Positions 10,021 through 58,213 of a stretch of DNA of 64,000 nucleotides are shown in pieces. The notes beneath the pieces are model-generated. The model did no database searches. It saw only the letters and a list, made by a program, of their open reading frames with translations, and was not told the origin of the DNA. Numbering within the stretch: the first letter of the stretch is position 1; each line of letters begins with the position of its first letter. The DNA is from an uncultured Clostridia bacterium. Its GTDB lineage: Bacteria; Bacillota; Clostridia; TANB77; CAG-508. The position numbers and the translations under genes are program-made. The stretch is taken from NCBI GenBank assembly GCA_944391755.1, contig CALXUT010000012.1:9727-73726 (forward strand), written 5' to 3'.

Positions 10021-10033
10021 AATTAATTTTTAG

Positions 10034-10074
10034 GGACAGACCTTTTTGTAAAAAGTTGATTTTTAGGTCTGTCC
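10034..10074 (+). terminator. Rho-independent terminator after pilC, built from a REP-like unit
   Basis: ggacagacct ... aggtctgtcc forms a 10-bp stem followed by ttttatt. The stem sequence (TTTAGGGACAGACC) is related to the ACTTTRGGGACGTTCC palindromes. Confidence 0.7.
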
Positions 10075-10087
10075 TTTTATTTAAAAC

Positions 10088-10149
10088 TTTACTTTGGGGA
10101 CGTTCCTTTTTGTTAAATTTTAACTAAAAGGACCGTCCTAAAAGTAAAA
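10088..10149. repeat. REP-like GC-rich imperfect palindrome (ACTTTGGGGACGTTCC family)
   Basis: tttactttggggacgttcctttt ... aaaaggaccgtcctaaaagtaaa. The same motif recurs at 49521-49605. Confidence 0.75.
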
Positions 10150-16010: not shown

Positions 16011-17669
16011 ATGGATTATAAAGATTTAGCAAATTTAATCTTTCCAAATGTGAAAGATATATCATACTATGAGGAGAAATATCCTGAAAGAGATTTACCA
16101 GAAGGAGCTATTGTAACAAGATTTGCACCAAGTCCAACAGGCTTTGTGCATATAGGAGGACTATATCAAGCATTAGTTGCAATAGAAGTATCAAAGAAAA
16201 CCAAGGGTGTATTTTTCTTAAGAGTCGAAGACACTGATCAAAAAAGAGAAGTAGAAAATGGTGTAACAGATATTGTAAATTCATTAAAAGACTTTGGAAT
16301 GGCACCAGATGAAGGAATGATATCAGATACAGAAGAAATAGGAAATTATGGACCATATAAACAAAGTTTGAGAAAAGATATCTATCAAGCATATGCTAAA
16401 TATTTAATATCACAAGGAAAAGCATATCCATGTTTCTGTACTCCAGAAGAAGGAGAAGAAATCAGAAAAAAACAAGAAGCTGCAAAAATAAGACCAGGAT
16501 ATTATGGAATATGGGCAAAATGTAGAAATATAACTGTAGAAGAAGCAGCCGAAAAGATAAAAAATGGTGAACATTATATTATAAGATTTAAATCACCAGG
16601 TAGAGAAGACAGAAAAATAAAACATAAAGATATCATAAAAGGAAATGTGGATTTTCCAGAAAATGATTTAGATATCGTCATCATAAAAGCAGATGGTTTA
16701 CCAACATATCATTTTGCTCATGCAGTAGATGATCATTTAATGAGAACAACACATGTTATCAGAAGTGATGAATGGTTATCATCAGTGCCATTACATTTAC
16801 AACTATTCCATGAATTAGGATTTAAAACTCCAAAATATGCACATATATCACCAATCATGAAAAATGATAATGGAAATAAACGTAAATTGAGTAAAAGAAA
16901 AGATCCAGAAGCGGCAGTATCTTATTATAAAGAACAAGGAATTCCAGTTAATGCCGTAAAAGAATATTTATTAAATATTGCAAACTCTACATTTGAAAAT
17001 TGGAGAAGAGCAAATCCAGACAAACCAATGGAGGAATTTGACTTCCAATTAAATAAAATGAGTGTTAGTGGAGCGTTATTTGATATGGTAAAATTGCTAG
17101 ATATAGGAAAGACCGTTATATCAAAAATGTCTGCAGAAGAGGTATATGAAAATTCTTTAGAATGGGCAAAACAATTTGATAATGAGCTTGCAGATATGTT
17201 AAAAGATAAAGAATATGCTTTAAAAGTATTGGGAATAGAAAGAGGCAATAAAAAGCCAAGAAAAGATATTGCAAAATGGTCAGATGTAAAAGAAAATATA
17301 GAATATATGTATGATGAAATATTCTATAATAAAAAACAAGAATATCCATATCAAGTGATTTCTGATAAAGAAAGCATAGAAAAAATATTAACATTATATA
17401 TGGAAAAATATTATGATGAAAATGATGACAAACAAACATGGTTTGATAAAATAAAAGCTTTAACTGGGGAAATGGGATATGCAACAGAAGTAAAAGAATT
17501 TAAGGCTAATCCAGGTAAATATACAGCACATGTAGGAGATGTAAGTACAGTAATTAGAGTTGCTTTAACTTCAAGAACAAATACTCCTGATATGTATGAA
17601 ATTATGCAAGTATTAGGCAAATCATGTGTAGAAAAAAGACTAAAAAAAGCAATAGAAAATTTAAAATAA
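16011..17669 (+). CDS. gltX: Glutamate--tRNA ligase (long form)
   Basis: HIGH region RFAPSPTGFVHIGG and KMSKS region KLSKRK. 552 aa. Confidence 0.85.
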   Translation: MDYKDLANLIFPNVKDISYYEEKYPERDLPEGAIVTRFAPSPTGFVHIGGLYQALVAIEVSKKTKGVFFLRVEDTDQKREVENGVTDIVNSLKDFGMAPDEGMISDTEEIGNYGPYKQSLRKDIYQAYAKYLISQGKAYPCFCTPEEGEEIRKKQEAAKIRPGYYGIWAKCRNITVEEAAEKIKNGEHYIIRFKSPGREDRKIKHKDIIKGNVDFPENDLDIVIIKADGLPTYHFAHAVDDHLMRTTHVIRSDEWLSSVPLHLQLFHELGFKTPKYAHISPIMKNDNGNKRKLSKRKDPEAAVSYYKEQGIPVNAVKEYLLNIANSTFENWRRANPDKPMEEFDFQLNKMSVSGALFDMVKLLDIGKTVISKMSAEEVYENSLEWAKQFDNELADMLKDKEYALKVLGIERGNKKPRKDIAKWSDVKENIEYMYDEIFYNKKQEYPYQVISDKESIEKILTLYMEKYYDENDDKQTWFDKIKALTGEMGYATEVKEFKANPGKYTAHVGDVSTVIRVALTSRTNTPDMYEIMQVLGKSCVEKRLKKAIENLK

Positions 17670-17714
17670 GACCTTTGGGTTATCAGCCCAACGAGTAAAA
17701 AGGAGGTCTGCAAT

Positions 17715-17915
17715 ATGGAATACCAAATAGGAGATATTGTAAAAACGAAAAAAGCACATCCTTGTGGAAGTAAATTATGGGAAATTACAAGAGTGGGAGT
17801 AGACTTTAAACTAAAATGCCAAGGGTGCGGACATACAGTTGTTTTAGAAAGACCAAAAGCATTAAAAGCCATCACTAAAAAAATAAATAAAAATAACGAC
17901 ACAGATACTATATAA
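17715..17915 (+). CDS. DUF951 family small protein
   Basis: 66 aa. IGDIVKTKKAHPCGSKLWEITRVGVDFKLKCQGCGHTV is the typical DUF951 pattern. Confidence 0.7.
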   Translation: MEYQIGDIVKTKKAHPCGSKLWEITRVGVDFKLKCQGCGHTVVLERPKALKAITKKINKNNDTDTI

Positions 17916-17967
17916 AAATAAATGAAAACATTTTGTGTATCTAAGTTTGAGTTAGAAAATATTAATA

Positions 17968-18018
17968 AAAACGATGAGGGATGTTCAATTTCACTTTGAA
18001 AGAGGCTCATCGTTTTTA
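17968..18018. terminator. Bidirectional terminator between convergent genes
   Basis: aaaacgatgag ... ctcatcgttttt forms an 11-bp stem with A and T tracts on either side. Confidence 0.6.
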
Positions 18019-18068
18019 TTTATAATTTCTTCGAAAATCTTAGCTTATCCAAAATGTTGTAATGTTTT

Positions 18069-18671
18069 TTATATAGTATCTGTGTCTAAATTTATATATT
18101 TGTTTATTACATTCCATACTTCTTCACTATAAATTTTTCTTTCAGAAGAAAAGGGAAGAGTGATAATATCCCCAATAGAATTTAATTGTTTTTGAATATT
18201 TTTAGCAGAATCATCCACTTTTGTTTTAGCAATTTTATCTGCTTTATTTGTGATTATCATACAAGGTAAACCACTTCTAATCACATAATCATACATTAGA
18301 AAATCATTTGCAGTTGGGGCATGCCTAATATCTACTAAAAATAGGATAAGACAAATTTCTTTTCTTGTAGATAAATAATGTTCGATAAATTTTCCCACAT
18401 TAATTTGTTCTTGTTTAGACATTTTACTATATCCATATCCAGGTAAATCAACAAAATAAAATATATCATCTATATTATAAAAATTAAGTTGACGAGTTTT
18501 ACCAGGTTCACTACTGGTACGAGCCAATTTTTTTCGATTAATCATTGTATTAATAAAACTTGATTTTCCGACATTAGATTTTCCCACCAAAACAACTTCT
18601 GGTAATCCTGATGTAGGATACTGACTTTCTTTTACTGCTGAAATTTCAAATTTGGGATTTTTTACAATCAT
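18069..18671 (-). CDS. engB: Ribosome biogenesis GTPase EngB/YsxC
   Basis: G1 GKSNVGKSS, G3 DLPGYG, G4 TNKADK. 200 aa. Confidence 0.9.
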   Translation of the reverse strand: MIVKNPKFEISAVKESQYPTSGLPEVVLVGKSNVGKSSFINTMINRKKLARTSSEPGKTRQLNFYNIDDIFYFVDLPGYGYSKMSKQEQINVGKFIEHYLSTRKEICLILFLVDIRHAPTANDFLMYDYVIRSGLPCMIITNKADKIAKTKVDDSAKNIQKQLNSIGDIITLPFSSERKIYSEEVWNVINKYINLDTDTI

Positions 18672-21178: not shown

Positions 21179-23563
21179 TTAAACTTCTCTATTAAAATTA
21201 CCATTTGTATAATCAGGGCCTTCGAACTTATTACCAGATTTAACAGTGTCAATGATTTTATTGATTTCAGAAATTGTTTCATCCAAAACATCAATTCTTA
21301 AACTATCTACATGCAAATCCATAGGGGAGATGGAAGTAGTTTTACTATTATATATTGTAGTAACCGTTTCCATATTATCTGGTAAAATTCTAAAGTAAAA
21401 TCCAAGTCTATCTTTTAAATAATATTTTTTAGAAGATAGACATTTTTTATCACAGTAAGAATAACATTTATTTGCTTTTCCTAATAAACAGTAATTTGCA
21501 TTCATTAATGGTGTTTTACCATAAACAATGAATTCTTTTTTTATATTAGATTTAAATTGTTGTAGATCTTGTTTATTCAATTCTGGTGATAAAGTTACCA
21601 TATCTGTATGTAATTCCTTAATTGTTAAATCATTATAAACATTAAAGGTATAATTGCAAATACATTCATAGTCACTTATATAAGTTTTCAATAATTCAAA
21701 AGTTCCAATATTAGAAATGACAAAACCTTTGATATTGTATTGATTTAATATCATATCTAACTTTGTTTTTACCATATTTGTATAATTATTGCGCATGATA
21801 ACAGGCATATAAATATACATATTAAACTTTTGGCAAAGTTCTTCTAAAATAGAAGCATAGTCTTTTGATAAAAAATATTTAAAAGGTATATACAATCTAT
21901 CAATATCTTGTAAAGTGGTATAATCAAAATTTGTATGCAAAATATTTAATAATAATGAAATGGATTTTGAGTTTATACCAGAATTCTCAGAAATTTTATT
22001 ATCAGTATAATTTGGAATAGCATCTGTATTTCTTTTAAAACTTTGAATTAGCATAGTTTCATATTGATTTAGTAATTGTCTTCTTAGTTCATTCAAAAAA
22101 CTGATACTTGGTATATACAAATTATCATCTAAATCTATTTCTATATTTTTAAACCTATATGGTGTATTGTTCGTTTTAGAAAATTGACGAATAATACGAT
22201 CTTTAGTAGTGGGAGCATTAATAGCTTCAATTGGAACAATATTTGAAGTTACATTAAATTTTATCTGAAGACTGTCATATAATTCTACAGTAATAGGAAT
22301 ATCTTTTTTGATATTTATCTTACAGTATAAATCTATTTTTTTATTCTCAAGGTTTAGCTGATTTTGTACAGAAGAAGATAGGGCTTTATCTGAAATTTTA
22401 AAAATTTTATTACCAGAGTATATATTGCCTTTCATTCTTCCGATTGTAATTTTATCACCATGGTTTCCTTCTTTTATATTATTTTTTCCAATCATTAATT
22501 CTGAAATCGTATAAGTAGAAGATTCATGTTTTTTATTCTCTATGTTAATTTTATCTCCAACTTTTAAAGTATCATTTGTTACAAAAGTGATATGTCCTTG
22601 GTTGGCATTAAAATGAGAAACAGTACCAAGATAAATTCCCATATTATCTGGTTTGTCTTTATAGATTAAGTTTTTATTACTATCCGTATTTAAATGTCCG
22701 TTTGAAAAACCACCACGATTAAATACTTGTAATAAATCTTTTTTGTCTTGCTCATCAATAACAAAATCTTGATTTTGATTTGCTAAATCAATGTATTTTC
22801 TATAAATCCTCGTAACGGTTGCAACATATTCAGGAGTTTTCATTCTACCTTCAATTTTTAAGCTAGAAACACCAGATTTTATTAGCTGAGGCAAAAATTC
22901 TAATCCACATAAGTCACGAGGACTTAATAAATATCCTTTATCAATAGAAATATCATCTTCTAATAATTCATAGGAAAGTCTACAAGGTTGAGCACATTTA
23001 CCACGATTGCCAGACCTTCCACCAATCATGCTAGAAAATAGGCATTGTCCTGAATAAGAGATACATAAAGCACCATGTATGAAAGTCTCAATTTCTATAT
23101 TCGCATTTTTACAGATGTTTTCGATTTCTTTTATATTCAATTCTCTTGAAAGTACAACACGAGAAAATCCTAATTTTTGCAATTGAAGAACACCTTCTAA
23201 ATTATGTACGGACATTTGTGTACTTCCGTGGACTTGTAATCCTGGAAAATTATCTATTAAAAATTTTGCTAAACCTAAATCTTGTACAATAATAGCATCT
23301 ATTCCTAAGTGATAAGCTTTTTTTGCAAGATTAATGGCATCTGCCAATTCATGATTTTTAATCAATGTATTTAGAGTAAGATGTGTTTTGACACCTCTAA
23401 TTTTTGCATAATTAATGGCTTGTTCTAAAGCATTATCATCAAAATTAGAAGCAAACGCTCTTGCACTAAATAAATTAGCACCAAAATAAACTGCATCAGC
23501 ACCATTCTGAACAGCAGCTTTTAAACATTCAAAATCACCAACGGGTGAAAGTAATTCTATCAT
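21179..23563 (-). CDS. Large peptidase U32 family protein (~794 aa)
   Basis: MIELLSPVGDFECLKAAVQNGADAVYFG, FIHGALCISYSGQCLFSS, and SLKIEGRMK. The start is chosen at the ATG after AAAGGAA; the ORF is open to 23608. Confidence 0.85.
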   Translation of the reverse strand: MIELLSPVGDFECLKAAVQNGADAVYFGANLFSARAFASNFDDNALEQAINYAKIRGVKTHLTLNTLIKNHELADAINLAKKAYHLGIDAIIVQDLGLAKFLIDNFPGLQVHGSTQMSVHNLEGVLQLQKLGFSRVVLSRELNIKEIENICKNANIEIETFIHGALCISYSGQCLFSSMIGGRSGNRGKCAQPCRLSYELLEDDISIDKGYLLSPRDLCGLEFLPQLIKSGVSSLKIEGRMKTPEYVATVTRIYRKYIDLANQNQDFVIDEQDKKDLLQVFNRGGFSNGHLNTDSNKNLIYKDKPDNMGIYLGTVSHFNANQGHITFVTNDTLKVGDKINIENKKHESSTYTISELMIGKNNIKEGNHGDKITIGRMKGNIYSGNKIFKISDKALSSSVQNQLNLENKKIDLYCKINIKKDIPITVELYDSLQIKFNVTSNIVPIEAINAPTTKDRIIRQFSKTNNTPYRFKNIEIDLDDNLYIPSISFLNELRRQLLNQYETMLIQSFKRNTDAIPNYTDNKISENSGINSKSISLLLNILHTNFDYTTLQDIDRLYIPFKYFLSKDYASILEELCQKFNMYIYMPVIMRNNYTNMVKTKLDMILNQYNIKGFVISNIGTFELLKTYISDYECICNYTFNVYNDLTIKELHTDMVTLSPELNKQDLQQFKSNIKKEFIVYGKTPLMNANYCLLGKANKCYSYCDKKCLSSKKYYLKDRLGFYFRILPDNMETVTTIYNSKTTSISPMDLHVDSLRIDVLDETISEINKIIDTVKSGNKFEGPDYTNGNFNREV

Positions 23564-23660
23564 AATTTTATTCCTTTCGACAGTATTATAGCATAAAAGA
23601 CAAAGCATTGCAATTATGTTGAGTTTCTAGGTTGATACATTGACATAAATTTATTTTAAA

Positions 23661-23746
23661 AGTTGATATATGAATATTTTTTGTCAAAAACATAGCTGGG
23701 GCGTAACAATCTGGGTCTTTGACTGCAAAATATTCATATATCAACT
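23661..23746 (+). repeat. Conserved-apex hairpin element, copy 1
   Basis: Arms agttgatatatgaatatttt / aaaatattcatatatcaact (20 bp) enclose GTCAAAAACATAGCTGGGGCGTAACAATCTGGGTCTTTGAC. Confidence 0.8.
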
Positions 23747-23900
23747 TAAAAAAACAAATAATAAATTGTAATATTGTAACAAAAATGTAATAAAAAAATG
23801 TCAACTAAGGTTGACTTAATTTGGTAAAAAATGATATACTAATGTCGAAGAAATGTCAGAAAAAATGAAAAATGTAAGAAGAACAAAAGAGGTGTTAATT

Positions 23901-25637
23901 ATGAAAATAAATATGAAAAAAATATTAGTCATTTTTATATTAATTTTATCATATATACTATTAAATCTTATATTTGGTAATACAGCTTTTGCGATTAATC
24001 AAACAACAACAACAGATATCAATTCTATAGATTCTAACCAATATCCAGGTATAAAAGAAATGATACAACAACTAAAGAATGAACATCCAAATTGGAATTT
24101 TAAAATTTTATATACAGATATAGACTGGAATGAAGCAATTGCAAATGAATATGTCGGACATGGTGATAAACCAAGAAATTTAGTACCTGCTAATAATAGC
24201 AAATATGCAGGAGATTGGATTTGTCCAATTTGTGGAAATGCATTATATGATACTGGAAAATGGCATTGTGCATCAGAAGCAGCAATTAAGTATATGATGG
24301 ATGCAAGAAATTCACTAAATAATTCAGATATTTTTCAATTCATGGAATTGACTTATACAGAATGTAATGCTAATGATATTAGAACAATGGTATCAGGAAC
24401 ATTTTTAAATAATGATTCATACATAAATGCCATTTTAGATGCAGCTAGAAAAAATAATGTAAGTGCTTATTATATAGTAGCAAGAATATTACAAGAACAA
24501 AAACCAGAAGGTACAGCTTTAACTTCAGGAGCAGGATATAATGGACAATATGTAGGATATTATAATGTATTTAATATAGGAGCTAGTGGTAAAGGAGAAA
24601 GTGAAGTCATATTAAATGGACTAAAAAAAGCACAATCTTATGGATGGACAACATTAGAAAGCTCTATATATGGTGGTGTTGAAATCATTGCAGAAAGTTA
24701 TGTTTCAAAAGGACAAAACACACTATATTTCCAAAAGTTTGATGTTGAAAATACAGATGGAGTATTTTGGCATCAATATATGCAAAATATCTTAGCAGCA
24801 CAAAATGAAGGAACAACATTAAGAAAAACATTTGAAGATATGGGAGCAATTAATAGTGGATATACTTTTATCATTCCTGTATATAAAAATATGCCAACAT
24901 CAGCATGTCCTAGACCATCAACTACAAGCACGACAACTCCAACAACTAATTTAGTAAGAGTAAATGTAAATAATGGTTTACGATTAAGAAATGAGCCTAA
25001 TGGTTCAAAAACAGTTGGATGGGTTTATAGTGGAGATATTATTACAAGATTAGAAAAAGCAACAGAAAAGATTGCTGGTACATATTGGGATTATGTTATG
25101 AAACCAGATGGAACAAAAGGATATGCAGCAAGAGAAACATATGATTATGAATCCACATATAAATTGTATTTAGTTCCTGTTGAGCAAGAACAACCGGAAG
25201 TACCAGATGTTCCAGAGGAGCCTGAAGTAGAAGATCCAAGTACAATTATCAAAAATGATAAAGTCAAAGTAAATACAGAAACAAATGAAGTTCGTGCAAT
25301 TCCAAATGCTACTGTAAAGGATATTAAAGATTTATTGGGAGCAGAAACGGTTATAAAAAATGCAAATGGAGAAGTGCTTTCAGATGAAGCAAAACTTGCT
25401 ACAGGTTGCACAGTAAATGATACCTATTCTTTAGCAGTACTTGGAGATGTGAATGGAGATGGAGAAGTAGTAGCTTTAGATGCAGCGATTATCTTAAGAT
25501 ATACAGTTGGACAATATACTTTGTCAGATATACAAGAAAATGCAGGAGCATTAGGAGGTTCAGGATTTCCAACAGCTCTAGACTCTGCAAAAATATTAAG
25601 ATATACAGTAGGGCAATACAATATAAATATACAATAG
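23901..25637 (+). CDS. Secreted cell-wall hydrolase: glucosaminidase-type domain, then SH3b-like domain, then C-terminal dockerin-like module
   Basis: Signal peptide MKINMKKILVIFILILSY. The glucosaminidase-like core is YYIVARILQEQ...YNVFNIGASG. The SH3b-like segment is VRVNVNNGLRLRNEPNGSKTVGWV. The dockerin-like repeat is GDVNGDGEVVALDAAIILRYTVGQ, plus a degenerate second repeat GGSGFPTALDSAKILRYTVGQ. Confidence 0.7.
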   Translation: MKINMKKILVIFILILSYILLNLIFGNTAFAINQTTTTDINSIDSNQYPGIKEMIQQLKNEHPNWNFKILYTDIDWNEAIANEYVGHGDKPRNLVPANNSKYAGDWICPICGNALYDTGKWHCASEAAIKYMMDARNSLNNSDIFQFMELTYTECNANDIRTMVSGTFLNNDSYINAILDAARKNNVSAYYIVARILQEQKPEGTALTSGAGYNGQYVGYYNVFNIGASGKGESEVILNGLKKAQSYGWTTLESSIYGGVEIIAESYVSKGQNTLYFQKFDVENTDGVFWHQYMQNILAAQNEGTTLRKTFEDMGAINSGYTFIIPVYKNMPTSACPRPSTTSTTTPTTNLVRVNVNNGLRLRNEPNGSKTVGWVYSGDIITRLEKATEKIAGTYWDYVMKPDGTKGYAARETYDYESTYKLYLVPVEQEQPEVPDVPEEPEVEDPSTIIKNDKVKVNTETNEVRAIPNATVKDIKDLLGAETVIKNANGEVLSDEAKLATGCTVNDTYSLAVLGDVNGDGEVVALDAAIILRYTVGQYTLSDIQENAGALGGSGFPTALDSAKILRYTVGQYNINIQ

Positions 25638-27341: not shown

Positions 27342-27350
27342 GATAATAAA

Positions 27351-27381
27351 ATAGGTATATACTATAATAGTATATACCTAT
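27351..27381. terminator. Bidirectional terminator between convergent genes
   Basis: ataggtatatacta-taa-tagtatatacctat is a perfect 14-bp stem flanked by an A-run and a T-run. Confidence 0.75.
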
Positions 27382-27384
27382 TTT

Positions 27385-28419
27385 TTAAAAAACGATATTA
27401 CTAATGATTAATGCAATAATGGCAATGGCATTCCATGAGGCATGTAGAAAAACATTACTTGCTATATTTCTAGTTTTTACATAATTTAATGAAAATGCAA
27501 ATCCTAAAATAGAATAAGGGATGATAAATAATAATTGAGGAATACTACTTGCAACTGTAACATGTAATCCGCCAAAAATTAGAGAGCTTAGTATTAGAAA
27601 TACAATATCATTTTTGATGAATTTTTTCATAAATCCTCTAAACATCAATTCTTCTGTAAGTGGAGCAATAATAATGGCAATAGGTGCTGAAACATATAAA
27701 GGCCAACTGTTGATAATAGACTGATTTGTAGATATATTACCAATAAGTGAAACTAATGATAAATTTGCAAACAAGTAGGCAAGAAAAATAATTCCAAATC
27801 GAGGTAACATATTAGAAATATATATTTTAAAGTTTTTTATAAATAGGATAGTATCTCTTTTTAGTTCATTCCACATAGGAACAATTAAAAATGTAATTTG
27901 TATGATATACAATAATGCAATATAAAGTAAAGCGGTAAATCTACTTGTTGGACTTGGTAATAAATTTGTAAAAGGTGTATAACAAATAATAAACAAAAAG
28001 ACAAATATTGAAAAATATACATACCATTTATGTTTCGTGATATTTTCTATTTCAGGCAAAGGTTTCTTTTCTTTTACAGGAATTTCTACATCTTTTGTTT
28101 TATTACATACTAATATAATACATAGTATTCCTACAACAATATTAAAAATATTTCCTAATAAAATTTGTAGAATACTCAGAAGAATGATTCTTTTTTTATT
28201 TTCTATTGGATTTTTATAAATAAAAAATAATAAAATAAAATTCGTTATAGCACAAATACTAAGAAATATTGCTTGTGAAGTATTAGAAATAGAAATATCT
28301 GTATTAAAGCTTTCTAAATCTATATTCCCTGAAAATATATTAAATGCATAGGATAAGTCTAAAAGTAAGACCAAAATACAAGATACTAACATGATTATTT
28401 TTTTGGTTTTAAGTTTCAT
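27385..28419 (-). CDS. CPBP (CAAX) family intramembrane metalloprotease
   Basis: 344 aa and polytopic. Motifs are TEELMFRGF, FGGLH and FLHASWN. Confidence 0.8.
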   Translation of the reverse strand: MKLKTKKIIMLVSCILVLLLDLSYAFNIFSGNIDLESFNTDISISNTSQAIFLSICAITNFILLFFIYKNPIENKKRIILLSILQILLGNIFNIVVGILCIILVCNKTKDVEIPVKEKKPLPEIENITKHKWYVYFSIFVFLFIICYTPFTNLLPSPTSRFTALLYIALLYIIQITFLIVPMWNELKRDTILFIKNFKIYISNMLPRFGIIFLAYLFANLSLVSLIGNISTNQSIINSWPLYVSAPIAIIIAPLTEELMFRGFMKKFIKNDIVFLILSSLIFGGLHVTVASSIPQLLFIIPYSILGFAFSLNYVKTRNIASNVFLHASWNAIAIIALIISNIVF

Positions 28420-46339: not shown

Positions 46340-46380
46340 ATTGCTGCAATTCACCACTAAGCATAATACTAGTTTATTAT

Positions 46381-46462
46381 GTTCATATATTCCTATTTTT
46401 TGTCAAAAACATAGCTTGGGTCTTCCTATAGGTCTTTGACTGTAAAATAGGAATATATGAAC
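46381..46462 (+). repeat. Conserved-apex hairpin element, copy 2 (between fabD and fabG)
   Basis: Arms gttcatatattcctatttt / aaaataggaatatatgaac (19 bp, perfect) enclose GTCAAAAACATAGCTTGGGTCTTCCTATAGGTCTTTGAC. Confidence 0.85.
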
Positions 46463-46532
46463 ATTTAAATAATATATTTTCAAAAGTCGTGAATTGTAAA
46501 CAAAAATAAAATATAGAAAGGATTTAGAGAAA

Positions 46533-49520: not shown

Positions 49521-49605
49521 CTCGGACTTTAGGGACGTTCCTTGTCGCGGACTTTGGGGACGTTCCTTATCGCGGAAAAAAAGGAACGTCCCTAAAGTCC
49601 GCGAT
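49521..49605. repeat. REP-like GC-rich palindrome cluster (two direct left units plus one inverted right unit)
   Basis: cggactttagggacgttcctt / cgcggactttggggacgttcctt / (loop atcgcggaaaaaa) / aaggaacgtccctaaagtccgcgat. This is the same motif as 10088-10149. Confidence 0.8.
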
Positions 49606-57452: not shown

Positions 57453-58048
57453 AAACAATAAAAGAAATTATAAAAAAAATAATCAGAGTAATTGTAAGAA
57501 CAGCTATACGAATCTATTTTGCTATTGTATATCGTGTAAAAGTCATAGGAACAGAAAATATACCAAAAAATAAAAAAGAGCCATTAATTTATTGTGGAAA
57601 TCACAGAACATATGCAGATCCACCGCTAATAGTTGTTACAGCTAAAAGGCATGTACGATTTTTAGCAAAAGAAGAATTAAGAAAAAATCCATTCTTTGCT
57701 TTTTTAGGTGTTGTATTTGGAGGGATTTATGTAAAAAGAGATTCAAAAGATGTATCAGCTTTAAAAACAACATTAAAAGCTTTGAAAAATGGAGAAAGTA
57801 TAGCATTATTTCCAGAAGGAACAAGGCATGGAATGGATAAAGGAGAAAAAGCAAAAGATGGCGCTGCATTTTTTGCAGTGAGAACAGGAGCAAAAGTAAT
57901 ACCTGTTGGAATTAGTGGAGGAGAAAAGCCATTTCAAAAAATGACAATCCAATATGGTAAGCCAATGGATTTTAGTAATAGATCAAAAGACGAATTAGAT
58001 GAAATTACAGATGAAATCATGAATAAAATCATTGAATTATCTAAGTGA
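57449..58048 (+). CDS. plsC: 1-acyl-sn-glycerol-3-phosphate acyltransferase
   Basis: CGNHRTYADP (HX4D) and FPEGTRH. Confidence 0.88.
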   Translation: MKTIKEIIKKIIRVIVRTAIRIYFAIVYRVKVIGTENIPKNKKEPLIYCGNHRTYADPPLIVVTAKRHVRFLAKEELRKNPFFAFLGVVFGGIYVKRDSKDVSALKTTLKALKNGESIALFPEGTRHGMDKGEKAKDGAAFFAVRTGAKVIPVGISGGEKPFQKMTIQYGKPMDFSNRSKDELDEITDEIMNKIIELSK

Positions 58049-58120
58049 AATTCTAATATATTACTATTTCGTAGTCAAAACATAGCTGGGGTTTTCCTAC
58101 GGGTCTTGACTTACTCAATA
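58045..58120 (+). repeat. Conserved-apex hairpin element, copy 3 (first unit of a 76-nt tandem duplication)
   Basis: gtgaaattctaatatattactatttcgta-GTCAAAACATAGCTGGGGTTTTCCTACGGGTCTTGAC-ttactcaata. It begins within the plsC stop codon. Confidence 0.85.
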
Positions 58121-58213
58121 GTGAAATTCTAATATATTACTATTTCGTAGTCAAAACATAGCTAGGGTCTTCCTACAGGTCTTGACTTACTCAATAGTAA
58201 TATATTAGAATTT
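58121..58213 (+). repeat. Conserved-apex hairpin element, copy 4 (second tandem unit plus the complete right arm)
   Basis: It has the same 76-nt unit with 3 substitutions, all in the apex (GCTAGGGTCTTCCTACAGG). The right arm aatagtaatatattagaattt pairs with the left arm aaattctaatatattactatt. Confidence 0.85.

Follow-up and report, generated by a model that had tools for sequence, protein, structure and literature searches.

Hairpin repeats of uncultured gut Clostridia as the probable centre of a palindromic ~150-bp MITE with IS66/ISBst12-like ends

[quoted passage not shown] They possess terminal inverted repeats (TIRs), duplicate their target, fold into long hairpins, fall into subfamilies, form hybrids, and are often located just past genes, in a position to affect transcripts; the target duplicated by Correia and RUP is TA. 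Another kind of repeat, the REPINs, is said to have been described by Bertels and Rainey in 2011 as multi-copy intergenic hairpins with compensatory changes in the arms. The present work deals with a family of hairpin repeats represented by four copies in a 64-kb stretch of DNA from an uncultured Clostridia bacterium (contig CALXUT010000012.1, positions 9,727 to 73,726), hereafter the window. This family is very probably a MITE of ~150 bp, presumably moved in trans, the hairpin being its centre.

The core of the hairpin, GTCAAAA(A)CATAGCTnGGG..GGTCTT(T)GAC, has been found by pattern search at four positions of the window, all on the + strand (chance expectation 0.17), and all four copies are intergenic. 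An earlier description of these repeats, referred to below as the original prediction, read their sequences correctly: the arms of 19-21 nt are near-perfectly complementary inside each copy and unlike across the three loci involved. Within the window, the inner helix exists in two alternatives, GTCAAAAAC/GTCTTTGAC and GTCAAAAC/GTCTTGAC. Folding of the copies as single-stranded DNA gives energies between -19.6 and -21.6 kcal/mol (z-scores -8.3 to -9.8), and the fold of the opposite strand is as good.

The family is not confined to the window. When one genome per species was scanned for the exact pattern, at least 112 loci (designated by L numbers below) were obtained, all from metagenome-assembled genomes of uncultured gut ‘Clostridia’/‘Clostridium sp.’ of human, rabbit, and sheep origin; among the matches listed, some single genomes have more than 30 loci. 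A profile search of the listed loci together with the window (~0.96 Mb) recovered at least 163 copies, including diverged-apex, truncated, hybrid, and tandem forms, and only 3 of the 163 fall within a called open reading frame (ORF) of at least 80 aa. The copies are close to the 3′ ends of genes, at a median distance of 52-57 nt. Proceeding inward from the arm, a copy comprises a small internal loop, an inner helix (3-4 variable bp on AAAAC/GTCTT), and an asymmetric apex, while the arms conform to a loose consensus ..AAAAnnnTGATATAT-WRM-TATTT.. with the subfamilies tagcta, ttaata, taacta, and ttacta. Within a genome, arm type and inner-helix type go together, subfamily by subfamily. The apex sequence is common to many species, and among the copies of one genome it varies about as much as the arms. 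No match was obtained when an intact 141-bp copy (L003) was compared by BLAST with phage and plasmid record collections or when IMG/VR viral contigs were scanned with the core pattern, and a literature search on the core sequence returned nothing relevant.

The nature of the repeat becomes apparent from its longer flanks. In one subfamily, conservation extends beyond the arms, as far as GTTACAATTCAG at the left end and CTGAATTGTAAC at the right end, identical 8-mers being located just outside. These conserved termini lie ~30-45 nt outside the coordinates from which the original prediction had placed the repeat at the opposite pole from MITEs with conserved termini; this conclusion is not supported, the span examined having been too narrow. 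The TIRs follow the pattern GT(T/A)AC(A/T)(A/G)(T/C)TCAG.., and the complete unit, 139-162 bp long and non-coding, is near-palindromic end to end with the exception of the asymmetric apex of ~33 nt. The TIR-to-TIR distance has a peak at 140-160 bp, and both TIRs have been detected in 64 of 140 copies, as against 5 of 126 control windows.

The 8-bp direct repeats flanking the unit have been examined for 53 TIR pairs: 23 are perfect (8/8) and 9 more match at 7/8, whereas none of the 53 reaches 7/8 if the 8-mers one step further out are taken as a control. If the length of the flanking repeat is varied, 2 pairs match exactly for n=7, 23 for n=8, and 1 for n=9. The copies with an apex that carry the TIR and an 8-bp target-site duplication (TSD) number at least 30 and form length classes of ~141, 150, 159, and 161 bp. 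In the TSD-bounded copies, the variable arm bases are bracketed by conserved sequence on both sides and are therefore internal to the inserted unit rather than part of the target DNA. The earlier proposal that the variable flanks reflect a small element inserting into hairpin loops is not supported by this. These genomes also contain MITEs that have the same TIR and an 8-bp TSD, with ends of the GTTAC type, around another centre:

L016 7695-7841, a different-centre MITE of 147 bp
L112 4210-4356, a different-centre MITE of 147 bp
L042 2163-2258, a different-centre MITE of 96 bp

The 147-bp MITE is an insertion within a terminal repeat that belongs to a hairpin-type MITE, with the duplications ACTAGTTA and ACTAGATA.

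The same ends and duplications bear on a kinship with REP/REPIN-type elements, i.e., hairpins of single-stranded DNA spread by RAYT, an IS200/IS605-like Y1 transposase. REPINs are ~100-nt hairpins with many intergenic copies and arms that co-vary so as to keep pairing, and the present family, in which hairpins of ~90 nt recur between genes, close to their 3′ ends, and show compensatory changes in the arms, is like them in these respects. However, the spread of REP/REPIN elements is not known to leave a target-site duplication or DDE-type TIRs, while exact 8-bp TSDs and GTAAC-type TIRs are present here; the Y1 (HUH) enzyme acts on single-stranded hairpins, and in REPINs it is the arms (REPs) that are conserved, whereas here it is the apex that is common across subfamilies. 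Moreover, no recurrent gene adjoins the copies, and the strand bias relative to GC skew is just 64%. A REPIN-type origin is thus extremely improbable.

Returning to the window, the assignment of its copies to the MITE is made because they are homologous to intact copies elsewhere. The spans given in the original prediction correspond to only the central ~90 nt of units of 150 bp (copy 1) and 159 bp (copy 2). The features are as follows:

23631-23780, + strand, copy 1, full MITE unit (150 bp); left end GTTGATACATTGAC degenerate, target duplication eroded
23763-23780, + strand, right end of copy 1, ..AAATTGTAATATTGTAAC, with the reverse complement GTTACAAT..
23661-23746, + strand, central hairpin of copy 1; arms 23661-23680 and 23727-23746; covariance model match 23654-23752, 93.8 bits
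23683-23691 (GTCAAAAAC) with 23715-23723 (GTCTTTGAC), + strand, inner helix of copy 1; asymmetric apex 23692-23714
46343-46501, + strand, copy 2, full MITE unit (159 bp); both TIRs detected, target duplication eroded
46343-46354 and 46488-46501, + strand, TIRs of copy 2, left GCTGCAATTCAC and right CGTGAATTGTAAAC (the unit ends ..GTGAATTGTAAAC)
46381-46462, + strand, central hairpin of copy 2; arms 46381-46399 and 46444-46462; covariance model 84.1 bits; folding energy (dG) -21.6 kcal/mol, z -9.2
46402-46410 with 46432-46440, + strand, inner helix of copy 2
58048-58123, + strand, copy 3, which opens a tandem pair and comprises the left arm, the core, and 7 nt from the start of the right arm; no outer TIRs
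58124-58213, + strand, copy 4, complete central hairpin; arms 58124-58144 and 58193-58213; covariance model 86.3 bits; dG -19.6 kcal/mol, z -8.3

In copy 1, the right TIR is detected and the left one is not; the left end lies 56 nt and the right end 61 nt from the core, which fits the 150-bp class of TSD-bounded copies. Its dG is -20.7 kcal/mol (z -9.2), and that of the opposite strand is -20.6 kcal/mol (z -9.8). Copy 1 is also present in another strain, with a difference of one single-nucleotide polymorphism in the apex. The gene downstream (23853-25637), taken in the original prediction for a glucosaminidase gene, has a C-terminal dockerin type I domain as its sole Pfam match and matches no glucosaminidase family; the divergent gene upstream (21179-23608) encodes a U32 peptidase/collagenase. 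On inspection, TTGACT of the inner helix was rejected as part of a promoter, there being no -10 box at a workable spacing.

The unit of copy 2 starts 3 nt past the fabD stop codon, fabG being located downstream, and an inverted repeat here reaches out to 46347/46496. Its length class matches that of the TSD-bounded L004 and L013 copies, and it has been found in 8 of 8 strain contigs. The left arm of copy 3 begins on the final base of an acyltransferase stop codon (58046-58048). Copy 4, followed by typA/bipA, is represented by its core only, a TIR being recognised on neither side. At the place of the tandem pair (58045-58213), nine other strain contigs have a single unit, and a tenth (L121) has a scaffold N gap, so the tandem duplication may be strain-specific or an assembly effect; the inner helix of the single unit upstream of typA in other strains is mismatched (GTC/GCC). 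Thus, copies 1 and 2 are old insertions, as their target duplications are eroded and they are fixed in other strains, and copies 3 and 4 are a core-only remnant tandemly duplicated in this assembly. A covariance model search of the window recovers only these four copies and a weak match at 27345-27386 (E=0.015; a loop-less palindrome). The latter place includes a perfect 18-bp palindrome (27348-27384; AAAATAGGTATATACTAT A ATAGTATATACCTATTTT), which is located between convergent genes, is like apex-less MITE arms, and is probably a bidirectional terminator.

Covariation between the arms has been measured on a model-based alignment of 129 copies. Standard pairs occupy 96.9% of the alignment cells, and changes on both sides are found in 23 of 29 pairs (612 cells). 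Not one of the covariation measures was attained in 500 shuffles, and sliding the partners by 1-3 columns leaves 32-47% paired. Watson-Crick pairing amounts to 97-100% in the three pairs beside the conserved loop, where a position may have as many as four pair types. The inner-helix position at which a compensatory ‘double deletion’ had been reported is C-G in 72, A-T in 52, and unpaired in 3 of 127 distinct members. In both respects, conserved pairing with variable sequence and a compensatory inner helix, the original prediction is borne out by the family as a whole.

Covariation of this strength, together with an apex sequence common to many species and nearly invariable pairing next to the loop, is what might be expected of a structured non-coding RNA family, either small RNAs or cis-regulatory elements, with the fold under selection and a functional apex loop. 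However, a DNA palindrome predicts the same covariation, which is therefore non-discriminating: taken alone, it cannot separate an RNA from a palindrome in DNA. Orientation might have helped the RNA interpretation, since among copies between called genes 63 are co-oriented with tandem neighbours; yet this excess is modest, 36 of these 99 tandem-spacer copies being antisense to both neighbours, and 27 further copies lie between divergent genes (17 are between convergent ones). A bias of equal size is seen relative to GC skew (91 vs 51), so the orientation may reflect replication or gene-strand bias. The outer helix contains 14 G-U and 19 A-C combinations, i.e., wobbles show no strand preference, and the two strands do not differ in how well they fold. 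Conservation of the apex within genomes does not exceed that of the arms, and the unit has transposon ends and target duplications. Searching Rfam at gathering thresholds, only 2 tRNAs were obtained for the window, and at E-value thresholds the copy 1 region (23600-23800) gave nothing but generic microRNA-precursor hairpins at no more than 26 bits, compared with cut-offs of 54-200. The earlier statement that the repeat belongs to no known Rfam family therefore agrees with the search, while the suggestion of a novel structured RNA is highly improbable.

If the fold is not maintained as RNA, the close match of the arms calls for a cause at the DNA level. In one subfamily, the arms within a copy mismatch at 1.1 of 22 positions, compared with 2.4-2.8 between copies. 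An orthologous insertion in two species (L004/L021), having the same TSD AATTAATT and flanks 87-93% identical, is informative here: in the left arm, one species has GATAT where the other has GCTCT, and this is mirrored by ATATC versus AGAGC in the right arm. Since the two species diverged, two clustered substitutions have been matched by mirror-image changes in the opposite arm; according to a rough estimate, the chance of two mirrored hits among about three changes per arm is <1%. Intrastrand template switching is the classical way in which quasi-palindromes are corrected. A single switch copies both changes at once, while selection needs four mutations, and arm-against-arm correction is therefore favoured. 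The chances that hairpin-templated correction of one arm against the other is the cause of arm matching appear about even. During replication, intrastrand template switching would correct the long quasi-palindrome, and arm matching would then represent concerted evolution of DNA instead of an RNA under selection. Possibly, only well-paired elements found new subfamilies, and selection on a DNA hairpin that brings the two ends together may contribute as well.

It is rather unlikely that the complementarity is instead produced by the mode of propagation, either by fold-back or very frequent template-switch regeneration of one arm, whereby an alteration of one arm would be passed on as a paired one, or by a core that repeatedly colonises the centres of palindromes and so builds nested ones. 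Either version would explain why the two arms of a copy can be 100% complementary when those of different copies in one genome are only ~70% alike, and also why the module is found at the centre of four unrelated palindromic contexts.

Two unusual copies deserve mention beside the arms. At L025 131-227, a hybrid combines the left arm of one subfamily with the right arm of another, and at L022 354-503 the apex is flipped relative to asymmetric outer arms. Together, they suggest recombination between or within elements, and the flipped apex points to exchange between arms. As for neighbouring genes, a very stable hairpin ~50 nt past stop codons may act as a terminator, make transcripts more stable, or serve as an RNase III cleavage site, so that effects on these genes may be envisaged.

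The palindromic contexts just mentioned might also indicate that the apex and inner helix, with or without the AT-rich arms, constitute a small mobile module that inserts at palindrome centres, the outer arms being host palindromes. The module is exactly central in at least four such contexts, one being the MITEs of 141-162 bp with GTTAC TIRs. At L053 it occupies the centre of a different, GGGGACGGTTC-type palindrome, while L002, L031 (same genome), and L092 have perfect outer arms of 37-38 bp that are only ~70% alike between copies. The remaining context is given by composite palindromes of 390-480 bp:

L041, L027, L046, L052, L062, L029, L040 (CAKOXV), hairpin module central, ~200 nt on each side of the core

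In the CAKOXV composites, the inner ~330 bp form an imperfect palindrome that is conserved between copies, is ~75-83% self-complementary, and has left and right arms differing in a fixed way. The outer 12-75 nt are copy-specific and almost perfectly self-complementary, and in two cases they end in GTTAC-type TIRs with a 7/8 duplication. Palindromes with similar arms but no apex also exist at 27348-27384 of the window, at L109 1047-1096, and at L003 3170-3212; however, they sit between convergent genes or past gene ends, as ordinary bidirectional terminators would. The inner boundaries carry neither direct repeats nor any other junction signature, arm type is tied to inner-helix type, and in TSD-bounded copies the variable bases belong to the moved unit itself. 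An inserting module is thus quite unlikely. Alternatively to nested insertion into palindrome centres, one palindrome could have grown from the middle; even taken jointly, the two possibilities are rather doubtful. Palindromic 8-mers inside the arms (ATAGCTAT, TATTAATA) were considered as old duplications of the inner module and rejected, for other subfamilies lack them there.

Other palindromes in this DNA have been recorded in passing. Just 3′ of genes, the window contains a second, unrelated family, (C)GGACTTTRGGGACGTTCCTT, whose copies are both direct and inverted (10027-10148 and 49523-49604); it has relatives at L041 6267-6316, L014 462-561, and L027 6140-6171, as well as in the outer arms of the L053 copy. 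Where two adjacent ORFs of the - strand meet (17411-18010 and 18069-18671), an imperfect 100-nt inverted repeat with 72% complementarity extends across the junction (17879-18105).

The identification of the family as a MITE raises the question of which insertion sequence (IS) its ends come from. ISDge4, a member of the ISBst12 group, has the TIRs GTGACTACTCAGCA and GTAACTGCTCAGCA and generates an 8-bp direct repeat (PMC12898284), and the inverted repeats of IS66 begin with GTAAGCG, its insertions being accompanied by an 8-bp direct repeat (PMC11946415). Two further elements have been inspected: an ISGka4-family element on the Geobacillus plasmid pHTA426, whose ends, read from the annotated element, are GTAACTATTCAGCC.. 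on both sides with the TSD AACTCGTC, and an IS66-family element interrupting wecB on B. thuringiensis pBMB0231, whose ends were read directly (TIR GTAACTACTCAGCTT, TSD AATTTATC). The MITE ends, e.g., GTAACTATTCAGTA (L048), GTAACAGCTCAGCA (L106), GTAACAACTCAGCA (L073), and also GTTACTAGTCAGCC, are identical to those of ISDge4, ISGka4, and the B. thuringiensis element at up to 13 of 14 positions; most MITE copies start with GTTAC and a minority with GTAAC. As TIRs and the 8-bp duplication are alike, the ends of the MITE probably derive from the IS66 family, namely, from its single-ORF ISBst12 group, judging by sequence likeness. The original prediction had named a match of the core to the end of an annotated IS or transposon as an outcome that would refute it, and in spirit this has come about: the element carries ends of apparently IS66/ISBst12 type.

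The cognate transposase within these genomes would accordingly be sought among ISBst12-type DDE enzymes. Such a transposase would move the MITE in trans by recognising its GTAAC-type ends and would make an 8-bp staggered cut in an AT-rich target, leaving 8-bp direct duplications. A search for autonomous IS elements found no long TIR pairs with perfect duplications in the loci, and solo ends followed up there led only to degenerate MITEs or an Rpn-like pseudogene. The latter is a frameshifted Rpn/YhgA-like gene (a PD-(D/E)XK ‘putative transposase’) located beside a solo GTTACAATTCAGG end at L050 ~550-1380 and L006 1-74; the junction sequence is identical in these two loci of one genome.

A number of observations weigh against the assignment to a MITE moved by such an enzyme. 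No IS66-type transposase gene has been detected in the ~1 Mb of loci and window by a motif scan or by tblastn with the ISGka4 transposase. No ORF recurs beside the copies, and an all-against-all comparison of 870 locus ORFs produced housekeeping clusters only. The sole pair of filled and empty sites (L066 vs L101) shows presence and absence with extra differences and not a clean insertion; most other candidate pairs are too diverged. One orthologous insertion, at L004/L021, is conserved. In the window, the copies' own target duplications are eroded and copies 3 and 4 have no TIRs. The conservation of the apex across many species is not accounted for. Finally, the forms at L002, L031, L092, and CAKOXV, with their long copy-specific self-complementary outer arms, are not fully explained by a one-unit MITE model.

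The assignment is of practical value. Units of ~150 bp with hairpin cores of ~90 nt would keep surfacing as candidates for ‘novel structured RNA’ in low-GC gut Clostridia, and their recognition as MITEs of presumable IS66/ISBst12 type clears a false lead; annotators also gain a model that consists of TIR pattern, 8-bp duplication, and covariance model. These repeats also flag spots at which metagenome assemblies break or duplicate, as exemplified by the typA locus. Moreover, the family provides a clean natural data set on arm matching in long quasi-palindromes, including the mirrored substitutions of L004/L021, and it carries the general caveat that covariation is by itself no proof of RNA.

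Among insertion sequences, those of the ISBst12 group (ISDge4, the ISGka4-family element, and the B. thuringiensis element) come closest: they share with the MITE the TIR pattern GTAAC-NN-(C/T)TCAGC and the 8-bp length of the target-site duplication, and their hosts include Firmicutes. They differ in being ~1.6-1.7 kb long with a transposase gene, whereas the MITE has 139-162 bp and none, and the near-complete palindrome with an asymmetric apex has no counterpart in the IS ends examined. In a brief, non-exhaustive literature search, neither this family nor any IS66/ISBst12-derived MITE was found described; the family may perhaps be the first palindromic MITE of such derivation. Like Correia, ERIC, RUP, and bcr1, it is small, non-coding, multi-copy, and intergenic, has TIRs and a target duplication, and folds into a hairpin. 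In contrast to the TA duplication of Correia and RUP, its duplication is 8 bp long, and its ends and presumed transposase family are different; its hosts are uncultured low-GC gut Clostridia, and the complementarity of its arms is unusually strict relative to the divergence between copies. Thus, the family resembles other palindromic bacterial MITEs, with ends and a duplication length that appear to be those of the ISBst12 group.

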